Source: Euryarchaeota archaeon UBA171 (lineage in GTDB: Archaea > Thermoplasmatota > Poseidoniia > Poseidoniales > Thalassarchaeaceae). Taken from it: 64,000 nt of DNA. Location: positions 11,909 through 75,908 of the forward strand of contig DANO01000018.1 in the NCBI GenBank assembly GCA_002497295.1, written 5' to 3'. Shown piece by piece: positions 3,927 through 57,068 of the stretch. Within the stretch, counting starts at the first letter, position 1; the number at the start of each line of letters is the position of its first letter. A program made the translations under genes and the position numbers. The notes beneath the pieces were generated by a model. That model ran no database searches, was not told the origin of the DNA, and saw only the letters and a list, made by a program, of their open reading frames with translations.

Positions 3927-4691
3927 TCAGTTATCGTCAAGTCCCCAAGGCGTTCTTTCTCTGGTTAGCCCCATCCTAAGGGTGAATAGTGACATAAGAT
4001 TGCCAAACCCGTCTCTCCATGTGTTAATTTCAGCTTCGCCAACTCTCGACCTGTATGGCACGCTAATCTCCCTTCTACGGCTGCTTGCTAATTTCGTCAT
4101 ACATCGAATCTTGAATTCTTGAGACATTGCCATTCCATCATGCTTGGGCCGGAGATCTTTGCGATCAAGAATACTACGTCTGAAGACCCACATACCGCTC
4201 TGTGAATCTGAAATGGGTGCGAAGAAGAGAAGCCTCGTAAAGAAGGTGAGAGTCTTATTCCCAAGACTGTGGAGTATTGACATAGAGCCATCTTCTGCCT
4301 TTGAGAGTCTGTCACACGTGATAAAATCCAAATCTTCGTCAATCAGCATCTTGACCAGAGAAGGGATTTCTTCTCCAGGATATGTGCAGTCAGCGTCCAT
4401 TGTCACGATTATATCAGCATCAGAGAGAGCGAATCCTGTTCTGTAGGCCCGCCCGTATCCTTTCCTTTCTTCTAAGTGAACTCTCGCACCCACATTTTCT
4501 GCCAGCTCCCTTGTCCTGTCCTTTGAGTTTCCATCTACAACTATGAATCCAAGTTCACGACACCATTTTCCAGTGGGCACTGATTTGATTGTATCGACAA
4601 TGGCTGCCTCTTCGTTCCTTGTCGGTATTACAACATCGACGCGCACGTCTATACTGTTGCCGGCCATACCCTTTCCACTGATTTCTCCCAC
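3927..4691 (-). CDS. Family 2 glycosyltransferase (dolichyl-phosphate sugar synthase-like)
   Basis: GT-A motifs: VDVVIPTRNEE, VVDGNSKDRT, and a DAD-type motif in IIVTMDADCTYP. Length is 254 aa. Its stop abuts the stop of the surface-protein gene with zero intergenic nt. Confidence 0.85.
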   Translation of the reverse strand: MGEISGKGMAGNSIDVRVDVVIPTRNEEAAIVDTIKSVPTGKWCRELGFIVVDGNSKDRTRELAENVGARVHLEERKGYGRAYRTGFALSDADIIVTMDADCTYPGEEIPSLVKMLIDEDLDFITCDRLSKAEDGSMSILHSLGNKTLTFFTRLLFFAPISDSQSGMWVFRRSILDRKDLRPKHDGMAMSQEFKIRCMTKLASSRRREISVPYRSRVGEAEINTWRDGFGNLMSLFTLRMGLTRERTPWGLDDN

Positions 4692-4746
4692 TTAACGACT
4701 AGTGGTACGTTCATGCCGGCGAATACTTCATTTCTCCAAGTCTTGA

Positions 4747-5847
4747 GTGAGTGGTATGAGTGGCGATGCCCGACTAGGTACAAGCGGACTCAGATTACGC
4801 ACTGCGACCAACTTGGCCGTGTTGATGTTTGTCGTGATAATCGCTATCAAGGAACTTTCAACAATCATCCAGCCAATGGTTGTAGCTATATTCCTATTTT
4901 TCGCAATACGCCCTCCTGCATCATGGCTTGAAGATAGATTCGGGCATCCATTGTTGTCATATAGCGCAATCTTAGTCACTTTCCTCGGCGGTATACTTCT
5001 TGTTAGTCAGATACTATACTCTAGCCTATCTGAATTCTCGAGCGAAGTAGACAATCTAACGCCCATATTCAACGAACGTCTCGAGCAGGTGGAGGGGATG
5101 GAATTCTACGGGTATAGCATTGATCTTGCTGGCTTGAAAACAGTGATATCGATTGAAGAGATAAATCGTCTAGTCACTGAGTTCATAGGCTCTCTAGCCT
5201 CATTCACTGCTAATCTACTGACTGTTCTGATATTCTTGGCTTTCATCATTCTAGAAGCTGAATCTCTTCCAAGAAGGATTATGGCCGCCTTTCCCGCCGA
5301 ATCAGCACGCTTCGACAATATTGCCAACAAGGCGGAGCGAAACATCAACGTGTACATCAAAACAAAGGCAACTGTTGCTTTCGGGCAGGCAGTCATTGCA
5401 GGCATCGCATTGACTTTATTCGATATACCAGGGGCATTTATCTGGGCATTCTTGGTTTTCCTTCTAGATTTCATACCCTATCTCGGTGCGCTTCTTTCAT
5501 TCATACCCCCGGTCATTCTCGCATTCATCATACTGGAACCGGCCGGATTCCTCGCAGTCGTATTCATTCTGGTTGCAAATCAGCAGGTTTGGGGAAGCAT
5601 AGTCGAACCCCAGTTAGCCGGGCAGAGGTTGGATATGTCGCCCATAGTTCTCCTGGCCCTGGTGGCTTTTTGGTATTGGGCGTGGGGCCTCACGGGAATG
5701 ATCCTCGGCGTACCTCTGGCAGTCATTATGAAGATCTTACTCGAGTCGGATGAGCGCACACTGCCAATTGCAATTATGCTATCGAGAAATCCACCCTCAT
5801 CTGTGGACAACAACGATCAGGTTTCCATCGGTCGAGACTCTGAGTAG
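4747..5847 (+). CDS. AI-2E family transporter (PerM/UPF0118-like permease)
   Basis: Polytopic membrane protein with the characteristic central region VYIKTKATVAFGQAVIAGIALTLFDIPGAFIWAFLVFLLDFIPYLGALLSFIPPVILAF. GTG start at 4747; alternative ATG at 4756. Confidence 0.8.
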   Translation: MSGMSGDARLGTSGLRLRTATNLAVLMFVVIIAIKELSTIIQPMVVAIFLFFAIRPPASWLEDRFGHPLLSYSAILVTFLGGILLVSQILYSSLSEFSSEVDNLTPIFNERLEQVEGMEFYGYSIDLAGLKTVISIEEINRLVTEFIGSLASFTANLLTVLIFLAFIILEAESLPRRIMAAFPAESARFDNIANKAERNINVYIKTKATVAFGQAVIAGIALTLFDIPGAFIWAFLVFLLDFIPYLGALLSFIPPVILAFIILEPAGFLAVVFILVANQQVWGSIVEPQLAGQRLDMSPIVLLALVAFWYWAWGLTGMILGVPLAVIMKILLESDERTLPIAIMLSRNPPSSVDNNDQVSIGRDSE

Positions 5848-6405
5848 TGACGATTCTGAGATATTGTGTAATCCTCTTGTCGAGAGTGAGAAAAACTCGT
5901 TTTCAATCGACCATCTCCCACCTTTTAGTGTAACAGATTGACAAGGCTCAAGAGCAAAAACTGAGAAGTGTTTTCCAGGTTCAATATCAATCAAAAAATC
6001 AATACAACCAGGAGCAACTCTGTAACTCACAGTTTGACTGGAGTGAAGCCTCATTGTGACCTCACTCGGTGCCTCAACGACTGAACCCCATATCCCTAGT
6101 TGATGCCCCTCACATCCACCCTCTATCCCAATCACGTCCATCTGATCATATCCTTTCTTGTACAGATATCGAATCGCCTTCGAAAGATCACTGGACTCCT
6201 GATTTTCAAGTTGAATTTTCTCAACACCTTCGTGTGAATTTTGAGTCGAGTCCAAATCACCGAGAATAATATCAACTTGGACGCCAGCTCTTAGTGCCCG
6301 ATCGCTACCTCCGTCTATTCCCACTATCAGGTCGGCTTCAGAGATAAGCGATCTCCGAATATCCGCGGATGGCCCATTCGAGTTAAGCCACAATACAGCG
6401 CGCAT
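5797..6405 (-). CDS. Thiamine pyrophosphokinase
   Basis: IVGIDGGSDRALRAGVQVDIILGDLDS matches the GDFDS-type motif. ESSDLSKAI and GIEGGCEGHQLG match the TPK catalytic-domain pattern, followed by a C-terminal beta-sandwich-like region. The 3' end overlaps the convergent transporter gene by 51 nt. Confidence 0.65.
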   Translation of the reverse strand: MRAVLWLNSNGPSADIRRSLISEADLIVGIDGGSDRALRAGVQVDIILGDLDSTQNSHEGVEKIQLENQESSDLSKAIRYLYKKGYDQMDVIGIEGGCEGHQLGIWGSVVEAPSEVTMRLHSSQTVSYRVAPGCIDFLIDIEPGKHFSVFALEPCQSVTLKGGRWSIENEFFSLSTRGLHNISESSLLRVSTDGNLIVVVHR

Positions 6406-28074: not shown

Positions 28075-29235
28075 TCAATCTCGTGACACCAACATCCCTA
28101 CTGCATTTCCGCCACCGAGGCACAGTGTGACGATTCCAAGAGACCCTCCAGTTCTTTCTAGAGCATTCAGCAGACTCATCAGGCATCTAGCCCCAGAAGC
28201 CCCCAGCGGATGCCCCATCGCAACAGCACCCCCATGCACATTGAAACAATCATGATCAATCCCGAAATGTCCACGTATGCCACAAGACGCTGTAGCGAAT
28301 GCCTCATTGTGCTCGTAAAGATCGATATCTCGAGCCCCCAGACCGTTTCTTTCCAACAGAGATTGTATGCACGGTATTGGTGCAGACATCACCCTTGAAG
28401 GTTCGACCCCCGACGTTTCAAAGTCAATAATTCTAGATATAATTGGCCAACCTTCTCGTTTTGCAGTCTCTTCAGAACAAATCAACAGTGCTGCCGCACC
28501 ATCACTCACCTGACTTGAGTTCCCAGCAGTGACTACTCCTCCATCCAGGAAGACCGGCCTAAGGCCGGAGAGAATCTCAATTGTCGAATTATCTCTGATG
28601 CCCTCGTCCCTACTGAGGTTTGGCATTGTTATCGCTTCCTTCTCCATCCATCCATTGCGCCATGCGGTCGATGCCCTGCTGTGAGATTGAAGCGCATATC
28701 CGTCGGCATCAGATCTCGATACTCCTTCTTCAATAGCGATATTTTCTCCAGTAATGCCCATTGACTCGCCGCTAAACGCGTCCCTCAAACCATCATGCTG
28801 CATTACTGATACAAGGCTTGAGTATTCTACAGACTCCCCTTTAGATGCATCCCGAGCTATCATCGGAGCATTCGTCATTGACTCCATGCCGCCTGCAATT
28901 AAGACATCAGACCGCCCTGCTTCAATTTCCGATGCAGCTATCATGACTGCCTTCAATGAGGAACCGCATACCTTGTTCAGAGTAGTGGCAGGGGTCTTCA
29001 GGGGGAGCCCCGCACCCAGTGCGGCTTGTCTAGCAGGAGCTTGCCCGGCACCCCCCTGTAGGACCATCCCCATGTATACGCCATCGACAACTCCAGATTC
29101 AGGAGGTATTTTCATGGATTCTAGCAATCCAGATATTGCCATAGTTCCTAGCTGCACGGCGGAATATTCCGAGAGACTACCCCTATACTTGCCAAAGGGG
29201 GTGCGAGCATAACCCGTAATCACTGCCACTGTCAC
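28075..29235 (-). CDS. Acetyl-CoA C-acetyltransferase (thiolase II, bacterial type)
   Basis: Active-site contexts NKVCGSSLKAV, GNSSQVSDGAAALL, NEAFA, HGGAVAMGHPLGASG, CLGGGNAVGMLV. Confidence 0.9.
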   Translation of the reverse strand: MTVAVITGYARTPFGKYRGSLSEYSAVQLGTMAISGLLESMKIPPESGVVDGVYMGMVLQGGAGQAPARQAALGAGLPLKTPATTLNKVCGSSLKAVMIAASEIEAGRSDVLIAGGMESMTNAPMIARDASKGESVEYSSLVSVMQHDGLRDAFSGESMGITGENIAIEEGVSRSDADGYALQSHSRASTAWRNGWMEKEAITMPNLSRDEGIRDNSTIEILSGLRPVFLDGGVVTAGNSSQVSDGAAALLICSEETAKREGWPIISRIIDFETSGVEPSRVMSAPIPCIQSLLERNGLGARDIDLYEHNEAFATASCGIRGHFGIDHDCFNVHGGAVAMGHPLGASGARCLMSLLNALERTGGSLGIVTLCLGGGNAVGMLVSRD

Positions 29236-29304: not shown

Positions 29305-30390
29305 TTACTCGGAACCCGAAGAGAAGCTGTAGAATTCTGGTCTTTCAATCTCTGGCCTCAGTTCCGGCCTGACTAAGACTGTTCGAATACCCCACAAGTC
29401 CGTGAATACACGGTAGGCAGCTGTGGCATCAAGATAATCGACGCCAGATGATCCTCCCGTGCCTACCCTTCTCCCGATAATCCTCTCAACCATCCTTGCA
29501 TGAGCATGCCTCCATTTTACCATAGCCTCTTCAAGCTCCACAACAGCGTCAACAAGTGCTCTTGGCCAAGTTAAAAGGGGCAATTCTCGATACGATTCTA
29601 TGAATAAGAGCCCTGCTCTAAATCTATCCAACTTACCATCTGGAAGAAGAAAACTCCTCACTTGGATTCTAGCCCCTTCAAATCTACCTTTGATCGCCTC
29701 TGGAGGCATATCGCTAGATTGAAGCATAGCCGCCTCTTGATCTTTCGAATGCCTTTCGAATGCATCCAGGTGGTCGCTGACATATTTCGATACGACGTCC
29801 GAATCCCCCTCATCACCGGGATTAGAGCCCATAATCGGAGTTCTATGCACCCACGCCCTCACTACCTCATGTAGCGACGGCTTCTCACTGGCACGAATTA
29901 GACGATCAAGAGCATGTTTTTGAGTTGGATCTTTTTCTGCAATTTTCCTAAATTGAAGAAGCGGATCGAAATTAGAACCTCTCATTTCGGGCGTGAGTCC
30001 AAGAACAATTTCCAACTCCCTCATTTGATACGATTCAAAACCTGATGCCGTCCCCAATCCATCCCTGAATGCAAGAAAGCCCTGGGGTGTTAGAGTTTCA
30101 AGAACGCCCCACTGGTGGGCCATTAGTTGGAATATCTCAGTTATACGGCGCATCCCATGGACGCAGGATGGAATCGCCTCTTCTGGCACTGAGGAGGCTC
30201 CCAACTCATCCCGAACTCCCTCTAATTCTTTGATGACTTGCTTAAACCATAGCTCGAAGGTCTGATGGACTATGATGAAGTGCATTTCATCTCTTGAGAC
30301 TCCTCTTTCATCGCCCTGAAGCTGTAGTAAACGATCCAACTCGAGATAGGTCCCGTAGGTCCAATTGCCATCGGACTTGTCTCCGGCCAT
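29305..30390 (-). CDS. kynA: Tryptophan 2,3-dioxygenase
   Basis: YGTYLELDRLLQLQ....DEMHFIIVHQTFELWFKQ is the signature N-terminal region of TDO. The later HRTP...GSSG region (GTGGSSGVDYL) fits the heme-proximal part; 361 aa. Confidence 0.8.
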   Translation of the reverse strand: MAGDKSDGNWTYGTYLELDRLLQLQGDERGVSRDEMHFIIVHQTFELWFKQVIKELEGVRDELGASSVPEEAIPSCVHGMRRITEIFQLMAHQWGVLETLTPQGFLAFRDGLGTASGFESYQMRELEIVLGLTPEMRGSNFDPLLQFRKIAEKDPTQKHALDRLIRASEKPSLHEVVRAWVHRTPIMGSNPGDEGDSDVVSKYVSDHLDAFERHSKDQEAAMLQSSDMPPEAIKGRFEGARIQVRSFLLPDGKLDRFRAGLLFIESYRELPLLTWPRALVDAVVELEEAMVKWRHAHARMVERIIGRRVGTGGSSGVDYLDATAAYRVFTDLWGIRTVLVRPELRPEIERPEFYSFSSGSE

Positions 30391-48091: not shown

Positions 48092-49540
48092 TTAGCGTTT
48101 TACACAGACGTTAAGCGTCTCAGAGAAGAATCCTAGGCTCCATCTTCCGCCTTCTCGTCCAACTCCGCTGTCTCCAACTCCTCCGAAGGGGGTTCGAAGA
48201 TCCCTGTGGAGCCAAGTATTGACCCAGACCATTCCTGTCCGAATACCTTCAGCGACCCTAATCCCCTTCTCCAGATCTTCAGTCCAAACGCTTCCAGCTA
48301 AACCGTAGCGTGTGCCATTGGCAATCTCAATGGCCTCTTCCTCGGTCTTGAATCGATGTACTGTGACGACGGGGCCGAAGATTTCCTCCGTGGAGCATCG
48401 TGAATCGGGAGATAGGCCCCCAATCACCGTCGGAGCCATCCAATAACCGCCTTCCAGATCTCTAGATAGGGATGATTGGATTTCCATATCGTCCCCTCCG
48501 GTGAGAAAATGCCCTCCCTCATCCTTTGCGATAGAGACGTACTCCTTGACTTTCTTCAGATGACCTGAGGAGATGAGGGCTCCAAGTTGCGTAGAATCCT
48601 CAGAAGGATCACCGATTTTCAAAGACTCAACAGAATCGATAAAGCCCTCTACAAACTCGTCATAAATTGAGTCTTGAACAAGAATTCTGGAGCCACAAAG
48701 ACATATCTGGCCTTGATTCAGGAATGCCGCCCTGCCGACACCCTCTATCGTTTTGTTGAGGTCACAGTCCGCAAATACAATGCTTGAATTCTTGCCTCCA
48801 AGCTCCAGACTTATCTTCTTGAAATGAGGGGCTGCGGATGCAGCAACTTTGGCACCTGTTGACGTGCCCCCTGTAAAGGAGACAAGATCCACATCACTAT
48901 GAGATACCAAACAACTGCCTGCCCCCCCTCCGTCTCCGTGAACCAAGTTGACCACTCCTGGCGGAAGTCCGACTTTGTCGATAACCTCCATGAGGAGATT
49001 CGCCGTCATGGGAGTCATCTCGCTGGGTTTGCATACCACTGTATTCCCCATGCCTATGGCCGGAGCAACTTTCCATGATAGCAAGTATAGTGGCAGATTC
49101 CAAGGGGTGATCAATGCCCCCACGCCAACAGGCCTGTAGGTTACGAAATTGTCCGCATCAGCCATTTCGAAAACTTCTCCACGATGGGTCCTAATCATTT
49201 CAGCAAAGAATCTGAAATTGGCTACCGATCTATTTGCATCAACCGCTCTTGCCAGCGATATTGGTTTTCCTGTATCCCTGCTCTCCAGGGACGCTATGTC
49301 CTCGTATCTGGATTCCAACTCATCTGCTATGATGTCCAGCCACCCTGCTCTTTCCGAATGACTCAGGCCCCCCCACTCTGACTGAGCCTTCCTTGCTGCA
49401 AGGATCGCTGAGTCTACATCTGAAGGCGATGAAAGGGGGACTCTAGCAAATTGCTTTCCGGTAGCAGGCTCAACAACATCGAGCCATTGTTCCCCTGTAT
49501 GTGCCTGAAAATTACCGTCGATATAATTCATCAGATCCAT
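48092..49540 (-). CDS. NAD-dependent aldehyde dehydrogenase, 2-hydroxymuconic/2-aminomuconic semialdehyde dehydrogenase-like subfamily
   Basis: ALDH motifs FTGGTSTGAKV, ELGGKN, catalytic Cys in GQICLCGSR, and EEIFGPV. SVANFRFFAEMI resembles the NFRFFA motif I associate with XylG/DmpC/ALDH8-type enzymes. Confidence 0.85.
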   Translation of the reverse strand: MDLMNYIDGNFQAHTGEQWLDVVEPATGKQFARVPLSSPSDVDSAILAARKAQSEWGGLSHSERAGWLDIIADELESRYEDIASLESRDTGKPISLARAVDANRSVANFRFFAEMIRTHRGEVFEMADADNFVTYRPVGVGALITPWNLPLYLLSWKVAPAIGMGNTVVCKPSEMTPMTANLLMEVIDKVGLPPGVVNLVHGDGGGAGSCLVSHSDVDLVSFTGGTSTGAKVAASAAPHFKKISLELGGKNSSIVFADCDLNKTIEGVGRAAFLNQGQICLCGSRILVQDSIYDEFVEGFIDSVESLKIGDPSEDSTQLGALISSGHLKKVKEYVSIAKDEGGHFLTGGDDMEIQSSLSRDLEGGYWMAPTVIGGLSPDSRCSTEEIFGPVVTVHRFKTEEEAIEIANGTRYGLAGSVWTEDLEKGIRVAEGIRTGMVWVNTWLHRDLRTPFGGVGDSGVGREGGRWSLGFFSETLNVCVKR

Positions 49541-50721
49541 CAGGAATCACCGATTCCCTCGTTAGAGAATGGATCAGACCTGGTCATCGCAGAGGTGTAA
49601 TCTTTCCAATCCATGGAAAATCTGTCTCTGTCCGGGTCCCATTCATCCCATGTGACGATTGACTCCAACGCTGAGGAGTATTTCTCGGGAACTATACCCG
49701 GCACAATGAATGCCTTCTGGCGATGAAGTGGGTACGGATTCCTGAGATTGACCCCCAATACGCCCAATACGGCCCTCGCCACATACCAAGTCGCTTGGCT
49801 GTTCCATCCATGTGCAATTTTGATTACTATTCCAAGTCCCTTTGGCCAGTCGTCATGAATCACAGATAATCCGAGTAGCCCATCTGCTCCTTCTTTTGCT
49901 ACAATACGCCCGTCACCAGCCTTCAGGCAAGTCGAGTCCAATCTGTTGAAACCACCGACTAGATCCGGATTACGATTCATCGCCTCCCATATCCAGTCAT
50001 CATTGCGTCTAGCAACTAGATTTGCGAACATCAAGGCCAATTCGTTTACTGTATTGGAAACTGTGGGAAACCCGCATCCATCTTTCGCCACTCTGAGGGG
50101 CTCCCAATTTGGCTTATTCATATATTCTCGAAGAACATCCAAATACAACGGAAACCAATCTGAACTAGGTAAAGTGTAACCAGCTCTACTCATGCCCATG
50201 AGCCTCATTCCTTTGAGGATAGCAGCGTGCTCTCCTGAGCACGTGTGGAACCATCTTCTTGGCCTCCTTACCTGGCGTCCGAATTGTATCAATGGTACGT
50301 CCAAGGGGCATTGCATCAATCCCCACTCAGATTCAGTAAGCAAAGACTGAGCGGCTGCAACGTGTTCAGTATCTCCATTATGCGAGGAGCAAGAGATGGC
50401 CTTCTGCTTCCAATCCAAGTCTTTCAGGACCTCAACAAAAGGCTTCATCATCAGGGGCTTCATCATAGAGCGGCCATAGACCAAGACATTTCCTCCAAAA
50501 GAGTGGATTATTTCATCCCCATGCGCCCATGCTACCGCGCCATGAATTGTATTCTCTGAAACATCCATCCGCCTAAAATCAACGAGAGGCTCCCATTCCA
50601 CATCTCGTCCAGTGGGTATGTTCTCGAATTTTTCTCCAAGAGGAGTCGTCGGATACACCGCCGAACCAGGCCTTCCAGCCGACACGGAGGAAGGTCGGTC
50701 ATTCGGATTAATTTCCTTCAC
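49540..50721 (-). CDS. Asparaginase II (PF06089-like) family protein
   Basis: GRSMMKPLMMKP, SCSSHNGDTEHV and CSGEHAAILKG correspond to the conserved blocks of the asparaginase_II family as I recall them, with an extra ~60-aa C-terminal extension. GTG start with GTGA overlap to the upstream gene. Confidence 0.55.
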   Translation of the reverse strand: MKEINPNDRPSSVSAGRPGSAVYPTTPLGEKFENIPTGRDVEWEPLVDFRRMDVSENTIHGAVAWAHGDEIIHSFGGNVLVYGRSMMKPLMMKPFVEVLKDLDWKQKAISCSSHNGDTEHVAAAQSLLTESEWGLMQCPLDVPLIQFGRQVRRPRRWFHTCSGEHAAILKGMRLMGMSRAGYTLPSSDWFPLYLDVLREYMNKPNWEPLRVAKDGCGFPTVSNTVNELALMFANLVARRNDDWIWEAMNRNPDLVGGFNRLDSTCLKAGDGRIVAKEGADGLLGLSVIHDDWPKGLGIVIKIAHGWNSQATWYVARAVLGVLGVNLRNPYPLHRQKAFIVPGIVPEKYSSALESIVTWDEWDPDRDRFSMDWKDYTSAMTRSDPFSNEGIGDS

Positions 50722-51977
50722 CTTTCAACACCCCTATTCACGAGGGGGACGACCTTTGTCATGAATGCCTCCATGTTACGCTTCACACGTTCGTTGTCGT
50801 GATTGAAAAAGTCGAACCAGCACATTATCCGATCATCAGGATGAAATCTTTCGATCAGTTGCTGGGCTACTTCGTCCACATTCCCGATGACTGCATTGTC
50901 AACCGCCTTTTCCACTTTACCCGGATCGATGGTCCCCTCCAAGGCATTCCAATAAGTCGAAATCGACGACTTAGATTCCTCTAAAGCATGCTCGGACCGC
51001 TCCACATTCGAGAGCCCATCTTCATCATTGAGAAAAACCATCACGGTTCGAGGCATCATTGAACGACTCCAAACTCCTCCGTCTCTATGGTAGCACTTTC
51101 GCATACGCTCATGCGTAGCTTCAATGATATCTGGCGGGGTTATGCTCAGGTTGAATACTTGTACTGGACGCCATTTATTGACTTCAACTTGAAGATGCTT
51201 ATCATGGCTGCCAAGAACGAGATTCAAGAGATCTCTTCGCCATTCCTTAGGTATCGTGGCGATGGACTCAAACTCGTAGCGGCGGGGAATGACGACTTCA
51301 TCTGGAGAAGTCGAGAGCCCCCATTCTAAGACTGCTGACTCTTGGACACCCGCCCAATCTTCATCACTTCTGAAATTGTCGCGTGTGAGCCTGGTTTCTC
51401 TTATCATGGACGAATCAATCACTTCACCTGACAGGAGTCTAAGGAAAATTTCGCTTGCCTCGGCAAATACCTGGCCACGTAATGCCGGCCATGCAGCCTC
51501 TTCAACAGGGTCCCTCGGAACGATCCCATACGGTCGTGCCATGAATTCAAAACGACCTGCAGAGAATCCGATATGAAGACGACGTGTCTCATCTGGATTC
51601 ACGCCGTGGATTGCGAGGAATGCGCCAACTCGTTCAGCTTGAGCGATTGGCCCCCCCGATGCGAGTATCGACATCACCGCGCTCCCTACCTCCATACGTT
51701 TTGTCCGAGCCATGACAGCTGCAGCGATTTGGAAGAAGTCGGTGCACAAGCCAACTTCACCGGGATAGTGGGGGACCACTGGGTTCGCATTGCTTTTCTG
51801 AACTTCCGTAGAGAGATGGGCTTGAGCAACCCATCCAACGTCAAATCCAAGATCGTCCGCCTTCTCAGCCTGGTCTAAGAAATTGGAGAACATCTCCCTC
51901 TCACTGGGCTTGTAGCCGGTTGAATCCGGCGTCTGCGAGACCGAGAAGAAAATATCGAATTCCATACCATTACCCAT
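50718..51977 (-). CDS. Luciferase-like (LLM class) flavin-dependent oxidoreductase
   Basis: N-terminal FDIFFSVSQTP...FLDQAEKADDLGFDVGWVAQAH and the overall 419-aa TIM-barrel-like pattern are typical of LLM monooxygenases. Cofactor and substrate unknown. Confidence 0.55.
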   Translation of the reverse strand: MGNGMEFDIFFSVSQTPDSTGYKPSEREMFSNFLDQAEKADDLGFDVGWVAQAHLSTEVQKSNANPVVPHYPGEVGLCTDFFQIAAAVMARTKRMEVGSAVMSILASGGPIAQAERVGAFLAIHGVNPDETRRLHIGFSAGRFEFMARPYGIVPRDPVEEAAWPALRGQVFAEASEIFLRLLSGEVIDSSMIRETRLTRDNFRSDEDWAGVQESAVLEWGLSTSPDEVVIPRRYEFESIATIPKEWRRDLLNLVLGSHDKHLQVEVNKWRPVQVFNLSITPPDIIEATHERMRKCYHRDGGVWSRSMMPRTVMVFLNDEDGLSNVERSEHALEESKSSISTYWNALEGTIDPGKVEKAVDNAVIGNVDEVAQQLIERFHPDDRIMCWFDFFNHDNERVKRNMEAFMTKVVPLVNRGVER

Positions 51978-52786
51978 CAGATAGAGCGCATTCGCCCGCC
52001 ATCTACAGCCAGACTAACTCCGCGTATAGCCCCGCTTGAAGGAAGACACATCCAAACCACTGCTGAAGCAGTTTCCAGCGGATCAACAAGTCTGCCAATG
52101 GGTGCTTGATTTCGCCAATCATCGTATATTTCTTCCACGCTCATGCCCGTTCGCTCACTCTTAGACTTGGACAAGGATACAAGACGATCAGTGTCTGTAT
52201 ACCCCGGAAGTATGTTGTTTATCGTTATGCAAGGAGCCAATTCTTTGGAAAGAGACTTGCTCCATGAGGCCATCGCCCCCCTCAAAGTATTCGATAGGCC
52301 GATTCCTTCCACAGGTTCACGGACTGACGTAGAAATAATATTGACAATCCTTCCACTACCAAATTCTTCCATTCCCGGTGCGAGACTCCTGACCAATATG
52401 TGCGATGCATGTAGATGGCGTTTGAAGGGTCCATCGAAGTCTTCCAGATCATTTTGAAGAAGTGGGCTGCGGGGTGGTCCGCCTGCGTTATTGATCAAAA
52501 TCGTAATTTCCTGATTGACTAATGATTCCGCAATCATACGAACAGCATCCGTATCCTCAAGATCCAGGACTAAGGCTTCATGCCCAGAACCATGCATCTC
52601 CGAAACCAGATCATCGAGCATCTCTTTGTTGCGGGCACAGGCAACCACTCTAGCCCCTGCCCTGGCAAGGAGTAACGCGGTGGACCGACCGATTCCACGC
52701 GAGGCGCCACAGACCAACGCAGTCTTTCCATTAAGCACGTTCTCTGAGAAAGGAAAATCTTCACCTAATATATCATCCATCGACAT
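51977..52786 (-). CDS. Short-chain dehydrogenase/reductase (FabG-like)
   Basis: GKTALVCGASRGIGRSTALLLARAGARVV (TGxxxGxG), NNAG, a catalytic Ser region, and a PG motif (NNILPGYTDT). Confidence 0.85.
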   Translation of the reverse strand: MSMDDILGEDFPFSENVLNGKTALVCGASRGIGRSTALLLARAGARVVACARNKEMLDDLVSEMHGSGHEALVLDLEDTDAVRMIAESLVNQEITILINNAGGPPRSPLLQNDLEDFDGPFKRHLHASHILVRSLAPGMEEFGSGRIVNIISTSVREPVEGIGLSNTLRGAMASWSKSLSKELAPCITINNILPGYTDTDRLVSLSKSKSERTGMSVEEIYDDWRNQAPIGRLVDPLETASAVVWMCLPSSGAIRGVSLAVDGGRMRSI

Positions 52787-52791
52787 TTCAC

Positions 52792-53574
52792 CTAATCCAC
52801 GTAATGCGCATATGTTTGCTCACTTAGCTTCTGATATACGACTTCTAGAATTTCTTCTGAGGCGTTTCGGAAGGTAGGGTGGCTACCCTCTCCCTGTGGC
52901 CGACGCATTTCACCCCATCGCCCTTCCACATATGCAATCAGGGCTTCTTTCATGAGAACTCCAGATAGAACAAGCGTTTCATAGCACAAATCTTCGTAAG
53001 TCATCCCTCTTTTTACAGGTACTTCTCTTCTCAAAAGTAAGTCGCCAGTGTCGACTCCATTGTCGCAGAAATGAGTTGAGGAACCTATTGGTATGTCGTG
53101 GTAAACAGACCAAGCAGGAGAAGCCGAACCTCTGCACTCCGGGAGTAATCCAGGATGTGAATTAAGAACGCCGTCTTTGGGGAAATCCAAGATATCTCCC
53201 CTGATTATCCTGGTCCCGCCGAAGACAATCAGATCGAGATCGAAATCCTCTATGTGAGGCATCACATTAGGGCTGTCGTGCTTTTCCACTTCGATATGCG
53301 GTACAACGAAACCATCCTCAGAAAGCCTGGCGATCTGACTCTCAATGGTAGGAGCGACTGGATTGCCCTCAATCCTCTTGAGAAATTTCTCGCGCTCTTC
53401 ATCGCCGATACCCGAGTCCTCTGATATTATTATCGAGGGGATGAAATTCTTTGACAGTAACTGACTCAACATCTCCCTACCATAGGGATGCTCCTTGAGC
53501 AGGAGAAAGGCGAATTCTGGCGTCGAACTAGGTGGCATGTTACGCTCTCCTGAGGAGTCATTGATACCCATCAT
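52792..53574 (-). CDS. Formyltransferase-fold protein (Fmt/PurN N-terminal domain type)
   Basis: LNSHPGLLPECRGSASPAWSV (HxSLLPxxRG-type motif) and VDTGDLL (catalytic Asp region). The likely start is MPPSSTPEFAFLLL near 53538. Confidence 0.7.
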   Translation of the reverse strand: MMGINDSSGERNMPPSSTPEFAFLLLKEHPYGREMLSQLLSKNFIPSIIISEDSGIGDEEREKFLKRIEGNPVAPTIESQIARLSEDGFVVPHIEVEKHDSPNVMPHIEDFDLDLIVFGGTRIIRGDILDFPKDGVLNSHPGLLPECRGSASPAWSVYHDIPIGSSTHFCDNGVDTGDLLLRREVPVKRGMTYEDLCYETLVLSGVLMKEALIAYVEGRWGEMRRPQGEGSHPTFRNASEEILEVVYQKLSEQTYAHYVD

Positions 53575-53821
53575 TTTCGGTCATATCAGGTTTCCACCAT
53601 TCAATTGCCTCGGGTTCGCCCGCCTCATCAATCGCTAGATGGCGCCCTCTTTCATGCAGAATGACCCCCACTATCACCGGCGAGAGCGGGAATAAAACCA
53701 CGTAGAGTAACATCGTGATGAAGAAGAACAAACCTGTGTCGAATATCTCACTCATTGCAATACCAAATGGTATGAATCCGATAAAGAGAATCGCCGGTAC
53801 CCCGAGCATCAGCCATCTCAT
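53558..53821 (-). CDS. Small membrane protein (2-3 TM), hypothetical
   Basis: 87 aa with hydrophobic segments LMLGVPAILFIGFIPFGIAM and LFFFITMLLYVVLFPLSPVIVGVIL. It is the first gene of the minus-strand operon. No family recognised. Confidence 0.45.
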   Translation of the reverse strand: MRWLMLGVPAILFIGFIPFGIAMSEIFDTGLFFFITMLLYVVLFPLSPVIVGVILHERGRHLAIDEAGEPEAIEWWKPDMTENDGYQ

Positions 53822-53873
53822 AAACTAGCAATCGTAACAAACTACTAATGTAAATTTCCAGCATTAGACAATC

Positions 53874-55571: not shown

Positions 55572-57068
55572 TCAGGGCGTCACTCTAGATCTGTCTCTCG
55601 GGAAAAGAACCACTTCTCTAACATTGCCGGCACCAGTCAGGACCATCAGTAGTCGAGCCACGCCAAGACCCCACCCAGCATGTGGCGGCGCGCCATATCG
55701 GAAACCGTCTGTGTAGAATGAGAAGTCATCGGGATCAAGATCCATATCTCTAAGATTCTGCTCAAGAATTTCCACACGATGCTCTCGCTGCCCGCCGCTA
55801 GTCATCTCATCCCGGCCGTAGTTCAGATCAAAACCACGACTTAGTTGACTGCCCGTGGATCCCATTTCCCCTTCTTTGTGGTGGATATAAAACGGTTTCA
55901 TCGACATAGGCCATCGGGGGATAAAGTGGAAACCAGGGTACTTGGAAGCAATAAGGTCGCAATGATGGCTCTCTATATCGTCGCCCCATTCGATATCTCC
56001 TCCTCCGTCTTTTACGATTTCTATGGCATCGTCGTAAGGTATTCTGGGGAATGGCAGTTCAGGGATCTCTACGATAACTGGCTCCATCCCCTGGGTGCCT
56101 CTGTAGGTATTGATGATGTCCACAAGATCTTGATCATCAGCTGCGACCCTACTCCATATTGAATGAATCATGCGTTCTAGTACGCCCATGACATCTTCAT
56201 CATCACACCATGCTGCCTCTATGTCAAAGGAGACGAACTCATTTAGATGACGATATGTATCATGTTTTTCAGCACGGAAAGCCGGCCCTATCTCAAAGAC
56301 ACGCTCAAGCCCTCCCAGAACTGCTAGTTGCTTGTACAGCTGGGGAGACTGGGAAAGGTATGCAGGGGTATCGAAGTACATCATGGGAAATAGATTCGTC
56401 CCCCCCTCACTCGCGCTAGCGATTATTTTCGGGCTATTCATTTCACTGAAACCCTCTTTGATTAGATGCTCTCTTCCATATTGAAGTACCTTCGAGCGAA
56501 GCTGAAACATCGCATTTACATGTGCTCTTCTGACATCGAGGTGGCGATTGTCCAGTCTAACGTCTAGGCCTACGTTGACATCATCAATAACCCCCACTGG
56601 AAGAGGTGCATCCGCAACAGCCAAAATTTCTGCAGAGGATACGCTTACCTCGTATTCCGGCGGAGGTGGTGAACTTCCTTCAGGAGTCTTCGGGGGTCTT
56701 TTTTTAGCCACAACTCCCGTAACTGATATTGTGGATTCTCGGCTTGAAGATTGAATTGATTCAAACACCGACTCGTCCATGGCATCCCTCTTCAGGAAAG
56801 CTTGGATTCTCCCGGTTCCATCTCGCAGCATTACGAAGCAGACACCTCCGCGACCTCGTACAGTTTCGGCATAACCTGCGAGTGTAACTTGTGAACCAAC
56901 CATGTCCCCGCCATTCGTTACAACCTGTCCGATAGTGTGGGAACGATATGCTGTGGGCAACCACTCGCTGCTGTCTCTCATACCCCTGGCGTGTCGGGGC
57001 TGGGTTTTGAAAGATATCGGGCCATGATGCCAAATGGTTGTACAAGCGAGACTATTCAGATTAATCAT
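55572..57068 (-). CDS. aspS: Aspartate--tRNA ligase, archaeal type
   Basis: OB-fold N-domain (VTLAGYAETVRGRGGVCFVMLRDGTGRIQAFL). Class II motifs FEIGPAFRAE (motif 2), GGQREH, and PPHAGWGLGVARL (motif 3). A Pro-rich insertion KKRPPKTPEGSSPPPPEYE is present. The first ATG overlaps the trmI stop (ATGA); the alternative start is MRDSSEW at 56981. Confidence 0.85.
   Translation of the reverse strand: MINLNSLACTTIWHHGPISFKTQPRHARGMRDSSEWLPTAYRSHTIGQVVTNGGDMVGSQVTLAGYAETVRGRGGVCFVMLRDGTGRIQAFLKRDAMDESVFESIQSSSRESTISVTGVVAKKRPPKTPEGSSPPPPEYEVSVSSAEILAVADAPLPVGVIDDVNVGLDVRLDNRHLDVRRAHVNAMFQLRSKVLQYGREHLIKEGFSEMNSPKIIASASEGGTNLFPMMYFDTPAYLSQSPQLYKQLAVLGGLERVFEIGPAFRAEKHDTYRHLNEFVSFDIEAAWCDDEDVMGVLERMIHSIWSRVAADDQDLVDIINTYRGTQGMEPVIVEIPELPFPRIPYDDAIEIVKDGGGDIEWGDDIESHHCDLIASKYPGFHFIPRWPMSMKPFYIHHKEGEMGSTGSQLSRGFDLNYGRDEMTSGGQREHRVEILEQNLRDMDLDPDDFSFYTDGFRYGAPPHAGWGLGVARLLMVLTGAGNVREVVLFPRDRSRVTP

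Follow-up and report, generated by a model that had tools for sequence, protein, structure and literature searches.

What does a compact operon encoding a formyltransferase fold, an atypical reductase, a luciferase-like flavin enzyme, an asparaginase homologue and an aldehyde dehydrogenase do in a planktonic marine archaeon? The question is raised by positions 48,092 to 53,821 of a 64,000-nucleotide stretch, hereafter the window, taken from contig DANO01000018.1 (positions 11,909 to 75,908; contig C16 in our list) of Euryarchaeota archaeon UBA171 (assembly GCA_002497295.1). The source is a metagenome-assembled genome (MAG) of Marine Group IIb (MGIIb; Thalassarchaeaceae), of 1.34 Mb and 85% complete. 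Marine Group II (MGII) archaea rank with the most abundant surface-ocean heterotrophs, but they are uncultured and their use of amino acids has been inferred from genomes only. An earlier note on this DNA, here called the original prediction, had described the locus as an orphan cassette of six coupled genes, in an enzyme combination that it did not recognise from any described pathway. Our answer, to which we give a probability of roughly 0.6, is that five of these genes form the detached centre of a tryptophan-catabolic cluster that operates without kynureninase. That the cassette belongs to a pathway from tryptophan and kynurenine via 2-aminophenol to 2-aminomuconate is highly probable; for its two central steps, genomic context leads us to lean slightly towards a Baeyer-Villiger insertion followed by beta-aspartyl hydrolysis.

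Families were assigned with Pfam and NCBIfam profiles, using the NCBIfam equivalog cut-offs as reference, which gave the following genes in the window:

53558-53821, minus strand: small membrane open reading frame (ORF), 87 aa, with two hydrophobic helices
52792-53574, minus strand: FT, formyltransferase-fold protein (Pfam Formyl_trans_N, 1e-12)
51977-52786, minus strand: SDR, atypical short-chain dehydrogenase/reductase (adh_short and adh_short_C2, about 1e-34)
50718-51977, minus strand: LLM, divergent luciferase-like flavin monooxygenase (Bac_luciferase, 3e-11)
49540-50721, minus strand: AsnII, class-3 (Rhizobium etli type) asparaginase homologue (Asparaginase_II, 5e-44, 151 bits)
48092-49540, minus strand: ALDH, aldehyde dehydrogenase of the 2-aminomuconate-6-semialdehyde dehydrogenase type (AmnC/NbaE-like; Aldedh, 1e-164)
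29305-30390, minus strand: TDO, tryptophan 2,3-dioxygenase (PF03301 Trp_dioxygenase, 1.4e-58, full length)

The six cassette ORFs are all present where the original prediction had placed them, and the Pfam profile search upheld every one of its family calls.

The cassette corresponds to the middle of a conserved gene cluster

Gene order was compared across 26 loci from relatives, covering the Poseidoniales families f1, f2 and f3 and three other families of the phylum. In its intact form, the cluster has the order TDO-SDR-LLM-AsnII-ALDH-AmnB-AmnA-RidA, with a deformylase in addition, and it is spread across Poseidoniales, three other Thermoplasmatota families and contigs of bacterial type. The original prediction had suggested checking synteny among relatives, and LLM-AsnII-ALDH proved contiguous in 24 of the 26 loci; in the other two, AsnII-ALDH is either absent or lies 1 kb from LLM. 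Among the 20 Poseidoniales loci (three families), the trio is unbroken save in L019, where AsnII and ALDH were not found beside LLM. The longer run FT-SDR-LLM-AsnII-ALDH is contiguous in families f1 and f2, families f29 and f31 keep the same core order, and in 17 of the 26 loci AmnB-AmnA-RidA come next, either immediately or at a distance of 0.6-3 kb.

In genome G211, from the same class, overlapping genes form an operon of the order TDO-SDR-LLM-AsnII-ALDH-AmnB-AmnA-RidA-FT, and genome G084 has the order TDO-LLM-AsnII-ALDH-AmnB-AmnA-RidA-KynB-SDR. Marine Group IIa (MGIIa) and several MGIIb genera share the arrangement ALDH-(PanB or PAP2)-LigB1-LigB2-RidA-amino-acid permease, in which LigB1 and LigB2 are AmnB and AmnA. 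Chance does not account for the gene packing; the unit is genuine and maintained by selection. In the genome of the window the cluster is dispersed, with TDO in the window 18 kb from the cassette, and with AmnB-AmnA-RidA, followed by an amino-acid permease, on another contig (C14). Rather than an orphan, the cassette is the detached middle of a cluster that is conserved elsewhere together with TDO, an AmnAB-type dioxygenase and RidA.

Distribution was surveyed in 201 Thermoplasmatota genomes; as relatives are not independent, the counts describe a pattern and carry no statistic. LLM occurs in 38 of the 201 genomes (and in 38 of 41 relatives), and the AsnII orthologue and AmnB in 40 each, all three being confined to the same five families. 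TDO is found in 59 genomes, including lineages without the cluster, and is present in every genome with these genes, all 38 LLM-positive ones among them. The bacterial context was drawn from one metagenome scan and from the source names of homologues. Many high-GC metagenome contigs carry this order, frequently including TDO and KynB (TDO-SDR-LLM-AsnII-ALDH-AmnB-AmnA-RidA-KynB); one of these contigs is marked as bacterial by a neighbouring GGDEF response regulator, and the source names of LLM homologues include Micromonosporaceae and Pseudomonadota.

Separately, contig PAQG01000038.1 (L075), labelled Acidimicrobiaceae bacterium SP142, encodes an LLM 73% identical to that of the window, as is typical of the MGIIb loci; in all probability an archaeal contig has been mis-binned here.

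The lower half is probably a 2-aminophenol meta-cleavage route

The original prediction had assigned the ALDH to the dehydrogenases of ring-fission semialdehydes, which its nearest structures bear out: the top seven matches in the Protein Data Bank (PDB) are all 2-aminomuconate-6-semialdehyde dehydrogenases (AMSDH; 1e-138 to 4e-135), with the next family at 1e-115. Its best NCBIfam model is that of 2-hydroxymuconic semialdehyde dehydrogenase (TIGR03216), at 562 bits and below the cut-off of 693 bits. The protein keeps the catalytic Cys and Glu, as well as the two Arg residues that in AMSDH bind the substrate carboxylate.

The dioxygenase on contig C14 completes this picture. AmnB (LigB1) matches the beta subunits of 2-aminophenol 1,6-dioxygenases (8IHG_A at 2e-106 and 3VSG_B at 4e-104), and AmnA (LigB2) the alpha subunit (3VSG_A, 6e-47). 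Directly after AmnA lies a protein of the RidA/L-PSP family (Pfam 1e-26; 101 bits for TIGR00004, against a cut-off of 106 bits), a family assignment that would fit a 2-aminomuconate deaminase of the AmnD type. RidA-type 2-aminomuconate deaminases belong to a known bacterial and fungal route (bioRxiv 10.64898/2026.06.05.730449).

The lower half of the pathway is thus most probably the known amn-type meta-cleavage of 2-aminophenol. With the systems of Pseudomonas sp. AP-3 (amnBACD) and Comamonas sp. CNB-1 (cnbCaCb) and the nbz genes of nitrobenzene degraders, it shares the two-subunit LigB dioxygenase, the AMSDH-type ALDH, an adjoining putative deaminase of the RidA family and the same logic of gene neighbourhood. 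Known amn-type systems obtain 2-aminophenol from nitrobenzene or chloronitrobenzene via hydroxylaminobenzene mutase, or from added aminophenol, and their hosts are pollutant-degrading proteobacteria; here, in contrast, the module is linked to TDO, LLM, an asparaginase homologue and a deformylase, and the hosts are planktonic archaea. The statement of the original prediction that no described pathway is involved can therefore be kept for the pairing of an LLM with an Asparaginase_II protein, for which we found no described pathway, but not for this lower half. Of the genes that act on 4-oxalocrotonate and beyond (decarboxylase, hydratase, aldolase and acylating acetaldehyde dehydrogenase), none lies in the cluster in the loci compared; no search aimed at the last two was made.

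Tryptophan 2,3-dioxygenase is linked to the cluster and canonical kynurenine enzymes were not found

TDO lies directly upstream of LLM in G084, is part of the operon in G211 and is found in many metagenome loci of the cluster. The enzymes that normally process its product were sought in selected genomes. In five genomes, including two assembled as single contigs, no kynureninase (TIGR01814) passed the cut-off, nor was there a match at E<=1e-30 in families f1, f3, f4, f29 and f31 of the 201-genome sample; in contrast, a kynureninase-like gene adjoins TDO in family f28. An Amidohydro_2 protein of the aminocarboxymuconate-semialdehyde decarboxylase (ACMSD) type was not found in G000 (the genome of the window), G203, G026 or G211. 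In four Poseidoniia genomes, 3-hydroxyanthranilate 3,4-dioxygenase (3-HAO) had no match over the cut-off and KynB of the cyclase type was not found. As for kynurenine 3-monooxygenase (KMO), the best FAD_binding_3 match in this genome is a geranylgeranyl reductase.

The kynurenine pathway to 2-aminomuconate therefore has TDO, an AMSDH-type enzyme and a putative RidA-type deaminase in common with the cluster. It differs in using kynureninase, KMO, 3-HAO and ACMSD, none of which was found here (nor was KynB in MGII), in cleaving the ring with a cupin where the cluster has an AmnAB-type enzyme, and in releasing the side chain as alanine, where aspartate is proposed here. Since the dioxygenase is of the AmnAB type and no ACMSD was found, the four side-chain carbons of kynurenine must leave before ring cleavage. 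Two steps would suffice for this, a Baeyer-Villiger insertion and then ester or amide hydrolysis, and they correspond, in gene order, to precisely those two enzyme types of the cluster that are otherwise unexplained.

An acetyl-CoA acetyltransferase (thiolase) gene at 28075-29235 comes after TDO on the same strand. Its position could point to acetoacetyl-CoA or acetyl-CoA as the destination of the carbon.

LLM and AsnII, the candidate central enzymes

The Bac_luciferase match of LLM spans residues 5-117 only, and no PDB entry was matched by sequence. An AlphaFold2 model (predicted local distance difference test score 91.4, predicted template modelling score 0.90) was matched by Foldseek to LLM TIM barrels with a probability of 1.0 and template modelling scores of up to 0.78, including luciferases, 2I7G and RslO1. 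A type II Baeyer-Villiger monooxygenase (BVMO), 3,6-diketocamphane monooxygenase (4UWM), is among the matches, though not the closest. The family is small, with 316 representatives among 1.84 billion proteins. CofD, required for F420 synthesis, was not found, which makes flavin mononucleotide (FMN) a likelier cofactor than F420, and each genome encodes a Flavin_Reduct protein elsewhere.

We propose that LLM may be a Baeyer-Villiger monooxygenase of kynurenine or N-formylkynurenine. With the FMN-dependent type II BVMOs (2,5- and 3,6-diketocamphane monooxygenases) it shares the LLM TIM-barrel fold; it differs from them in its identity of about 15%, in a barrel that is some 100 residues larger, with insertions, and in a substrate that here would be an amino acid. 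The logic of the two steps is also that of the 4-hydroxyacetophenone pathway: as in this acetophenone route, in which 4-hydroxyacetophenone monooxygenase (HAPMO) and an esterase give hydroquinone, oxygen would be inserted into an aryl ketone and a phenol then freed from the ester for ring cleavage. HAPMO itself is a type I BVMO, dependent on flavin adenine dinucleotide and NADPH, and not an LLM.

A copy of LLM, 43% identical, forms the N-terminal part of a 1501-aa protein of the jakobid eukaryote Andalucia godoyi (P0124), followed by GATase and ApbE (FMN transferase) domains; either the fusion is genuine or the gene model has merged separate genes.

AsnII is the most conserved gene of the cluster (64-86% identity). 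It matches the R. etli asparaginases ReAIV and ReAV (1e-14 and 3e-13), which belong to the same family (PF06089), and an alignment of nine orthologues from five families shows that the active site is largely shared. R84-S85-x-x-K88, S113-H-N-G and K276, equivalent to Arg47, Ser48, Lys51, Ser80 and Lys263 of ReAV, are invariant, as are the motifs RSMMK, SHNG and KEGADG. Both Zn cysteines are kept in eight of the nine orthologues. The Lys of the Cys-Lys-Cys zinc site of ReAV, Lys138, is replaced by Glu (Gln in G211), and Asn134 is Thr. Unlike ReAV, AsnII carries some 45 additional residues at its N-terminus, as well as a C-terminal tail that is conserved. It is also set sharply apart from other PF06089 proteins, which are at most 33% identical to it within the phylum: orthologues score at least 554 bits, and the other PF06089 proteins of the phylum at most 81. 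A homologue search retrieved only near-identical MGII proteins.

Kynurenine can be viewed as an asparagine in which an aryl group replaces the amide NH2. A class 3 asparaginase is expected to act on an aspartyl substrate by a beta-acyl-enzyme mechanism (PMC12292245). The genomic context of AsnII argues for a beta-aspartyl aryl ester or anilide as the putative substrate, rather than L-asparagine. The leaving group would then be 2-aminophenol, where ReAV and ReAIV release ammonia.

FT and SDR

FT carries the triad Asn138-His140-Asp175 (NSHPGLLP ... DTGD), invariant in 9/9 orthologues, and its best PDB matches are PurN, the hydrolase domain of 10-formyltetrahydrofolate dehydrogenase (FDH) and sugar N-formyltransferases. 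It corresponds to no characterised equivalog (PurN, Fmt, ArnA or sugar N-formyltransferases), with NCBIfam scores of 26-43 bits against cut-offs of 150-777; for Fmt it reaches 43 of the required 201 bits, for PurN 36 of 150. The N10-formyltetrahydrofolate formyltransferases and hydrolases (PurN, Fmt, the N-terminal domain of FDH and sugar N-formyltransferases) share with it the Formyl_trans_N fold, the Asn-His-Asp triad and an SLLP-like loop; unlike them, it has an N-terminal subdomain motif of its own, EHPYGREM, and a C-terminal extension.

FT is present in MGIIb, family f2 and G211. No orthologue was found in MGIIa, where an alpha/beta hydrolase fills the slot directly upstream of SDR. G084 has the arylformamidase KynB (TIGR03035, 5e-62) inside the cluster and lacks FT, and KynB also takes the place of FT in the cluster of family f29 and in bacterial-type loci. 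Because three unrelated proteins (FT, the alpha/beta hydrolase and KynB) alternate at one step, FT would be expected to remove the formyl group of N-formylkynurenine. We propose it as a putative deformylase of N-formylkynurenine (or of N-formyl-2-aminophenol), possibly with formyl transfer to tetrahydrofolate.

SDR is found immediately upstream of LLM in MGIIb, in families f2, f4 and f31 and in the majority of bacterial-type loci; elsewhere the two genes are no more than a few kb apart. The catalytic Tyr-x-x-x-Lys of classical SDRs is replaced in it by G-x-S-N-x-x-R, which is invariant in eight archaeal and bacterial-type orthologues, while the glycine-rich loop and NNxGG are retained. Its nearest structures (5VPS, 5IDX, 1O5I and 2Z1N) are uncharacterised SDRs from structural genomics. 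SDR may be the flavin reductase partner of LLM, or a reductase acting after 2-aminomuconate.

A proposed route from tryptophan to 4-oxalocrotonate

In the route that we propose, TDO would open the indole ring to give N-formylkynurenine. FT would take off the formyl group, hydrolytically or with tetrahydrofolate as acceptor, either at this point or after the action of AsnII. The FMN-dependent LLM would then insert oxygen into the bond that joins the side-chain carbonyl of kynurenine to the ring, with migration of the aryl group. The product would be the beta-(2-aminophenyl) ester of aspartate, which could pass by an O-to-N acyl shift into N4-(2-hydroxyphenyl)asparagine. AsnII would bind the alpha-amino-acid head as it would that of asparagine, and its Ser nucleophile would serve to hydrolyse the beta-acyl bond, with release of L-aspartate and 2-aminophenol. 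The latter would be cleaved by AmnB/AmnA of contig C14 to 2-aminomuconate-6-semialdehyde, oxidised by the cassette ALDH to 2-aminomuconate, and deaminated to 4-oxalocrotonate by the RidA protein beside AmnA.

The guess of the original prediction, a stepwise oxidation, deamidation and deformylation of a small nitrogen-containing substrate, is consistent with this route. No description of the cluster, or of a Baeyer-Villiger step on kynurenine, was found in the literature searched. Taken jointly, the claim would be that of an undescribed tryptophan route in MGII and Marine Group III (MGIII) and several bacterial lineages, in which Baeyer-Villiger oxidation by LLM and hydrolysis by AsnII yield aspartate and 2-aminophenol, and in which the MGIIb FT replaces arylformamidase and may make 10-formyltetrahydrofolate; for this conjunction we consider the odds to be even.

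Alternative explanations

Several readings suggested by parts of the cassette were dropped. A cluster for sugar N-formylation or surface glycans, made up of FT, SDR, the divergent acyltransferase-3 and the giant membrane protein, does not agree with the finding that the last two, like the small ORF, are restricted to one genus, whereas FT-SDR-LLM-AsnII-ALDH is found order-wide. A C1 or methanopterin-like module, with LLM as a Mer-like enzyme beside a formyltransferase, was given up in view of the aromatic context and of CofD not being found. A Rut-like pyrimidine pathway, which would account for an LLM, an amidohydrolase and an SDR, was abandoned after TDO, AmnAB and RidA were seen in the same operon. 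A link to pantothenate was set aside, as PanB lies between ALDH and AmnB in MGIIa and not in other lineages.

Three further explanations deserve closer comparison. AsnII could be a kynurenine hydrolase independent of pyridoxal phosphate (PLP) that releases anthranilate and alanine, with LLM acting as a decarboxylating anthranilate 1-monooxygenase, similar to salicylate hydroxylase, to provide 2-aminophenol for AmnAB. This would account for the synteny, for the missing kynureninase and for a dioxygenase of the AmnAB type, and a flavin hydroperoxide is in general able to perform decarboxylative hydroxylation. By established enzymology, however, there is no obvious mechanism by which a Ser-Lys amidohydrolase could break the C-C bond in kynurenine absent PLP or a beta-diketone, and the order LLM then AsnII, the retained head-group anchor of Arg47 and Zn, and the beta-acyl-enzyme mechanism all fit an ester or amide better. 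The decarboxylating aromatic hydroxylases known to us are moreover all group A flavoproteins, none of them an LLM, and we regard this explanation as unlikely. Less likely again is a course close to the canonical one, through 3-hydroxykynurenine or 3-hydroxyanthranilate, in which LLM stands in for KMO as ring hydroxylase, AsnII or FT for kynureninase or ACMSD, and the LigB-type dioxygenase for the cupin 3-HAO. Substitutes would indeed be needed, given that KMO, 3-HAO and ACMSD were not found, and the canonical pathway likewise has TDO, an AMSDH-like ALDH and a RidA deaminase. Yet it would take three non-orthologous replacements, with kynureninase and decarboxylase chemistries that are foreign to the available folds; the cluster holds no conserved decarboxylase candidate, and the dioxygenase pair matches AmnB and AmnA at 2e-106 and 6e-47, enzymes that act on 2-aminophenol.

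The cassette might, finally, act on some other small nitrogen-containing compound, N-formylated or amidated, its linkage to TDO and AmnAB being a co-location of separate modules. That in this genome it lies 18 kb away from TDO and on a different contig from AmnAB speaks for this, as does G013, which appears to retain TDO and AmnAB without LLM and AsnII. We nevertheless rank it as the least likely of the three: the cassette ALDH is of the AMSDH type and needs the product of AmnAB, LLM, AsnII and AmnB have the same phyletic distribution, archaeal and bacterial-type loci keep these genes side by side although their GC contents differ greatly, and overlapping genes join all of them in the G211 operon.

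A number of observations weigh against the Baeyer-Villiger route itself. G013, a genome of the same family that is 96% complete, has TDO and AmnB/AmnA, while protein queries did not find LLM, AsnII or FT; either the contiguous cassette fell into an assembly gap, or the middle of the pathway is built differently in this lineage. In the genome of the window the cluster is dispersed over no fewer than three sites, and MAGs are incomplete, this one included. LLM is only about 15% identical to any solved LLM, and its Foldseek neighbours comprise luciferases, hydroxylases, F420 enzymes and BVMOs without a clear preference. The AsnII of G211 (L033, 7936-8994) lacks both Zn cysteines, having Ser and Asp instead, so that the predicted metal site is not universally kept in the orthologue group. 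FT has a transferase fold, and its putative aryl-formamide deformylation is without direct precedent among the proteins tested; for the alpha/beta hydrolase of MGIIa, a PDB search did not retrieve known kynurenine formamidases. As to the fate of 4-oxalocrotonate, each genome has only one small gene of the FAA_hydrolase family, with no equivalog assignment. The chemistries proposed for LLM, AsnII, FT and SDR are, in sum, deduced from context.

Operon structure and neighbouring genes

The junctions of the cassette read as the original prediction had described them: in order, a 17-nt overlap, a 5-nt gap (TAG-GTGAA-ATG), TGATG, GTGA and TGATG. The start of FT is more likely the ATG at 53538, judging from a GGAG 8 nt upstream and from orthologues that align only from residue 17-19 or so, in which case the 17-nt overlap becomes a 19-nt gap. 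The start of LLM may be Met5.

The tight coupling of the unit stands, but only five of the genes (FT, SDR, LLM, AsnII and ALDH) are conserved beyond the genus. The sixth, the 87-aa ORF, has two predicted transmembrane helices (Kyte-Doolittle windows of about 2.2 and 2.5) and no Pfam or NCBIfam match. Among the relatives' loci it is present only in those of the same genus, at 43-78% identity, and it is a lineage-specific add-on, which heads the unit in this genus alone, rather than a conserved member. The divergent acyltransferase-3 gene and the gene for a 1270-aa membrane protein were likewise seen in same-genus loci only. Between the start of the small ORF and the acyltransferase-3 gene lies an AT-rich spacer of 52 nt (53822-53873; TTTACATTA ... 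TTTATGAG). As both divergent promoters must fit into it, this suggests leaderless or near-leaderless transcripts.

Other genes recur near the cluster. The gene for a non-discriminating aspartyl-tRNA synthetase (55572-57068 in the window) lies 0.1-3 kb upstream in nearly all Poseidoniales loci. This is probably a matter of conserved gene order, and is of note since aspartate is the predicted product. PanB (ketopantoate hydroxymethyltransferase) is found between ALDH and AmnB in MGIIa (L013, 4583-5404; L024, 4690-5511) and after the permease in L016. As the proposed pathway yields aspartate, a precursor of beta-alanine, a connection with pantothenate is conceivable, though it may equally be coincidence. 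A PAP2-family membrane protein of about 480 aa precedes AmnB in this genome (L042, 5569-6993), and in L017 a PAP2-family protein is encoded between ALDH and AmnB (4422-5927); in the genus of the window, this gene marks the point at which the cluster is split.

Implications

If the proposal is correct, tryptophan is mineralised in Marine Group II, and in various uncultured bacteria, along a path that pathway databases lack, and current annotation would score such genomes as having a "broken" kynurenine pathway. Three new activities would follow: Baeyer-Villiger oxygenation of kynurenine by an LLM-class monooxygenase, hydrolysis of beta-aspartyl-aryl bonds by a member of the R. etli asparaginase family, whose physiological range has barely been explored, and deformylation of aryl formamides by an enzyme with a formyltransferase fold. 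It would also give the 2-aminophenol 1,6-dioxygenases (AmnAB), known mainly from pollutant degraders, a natural role and a source of their substrate.

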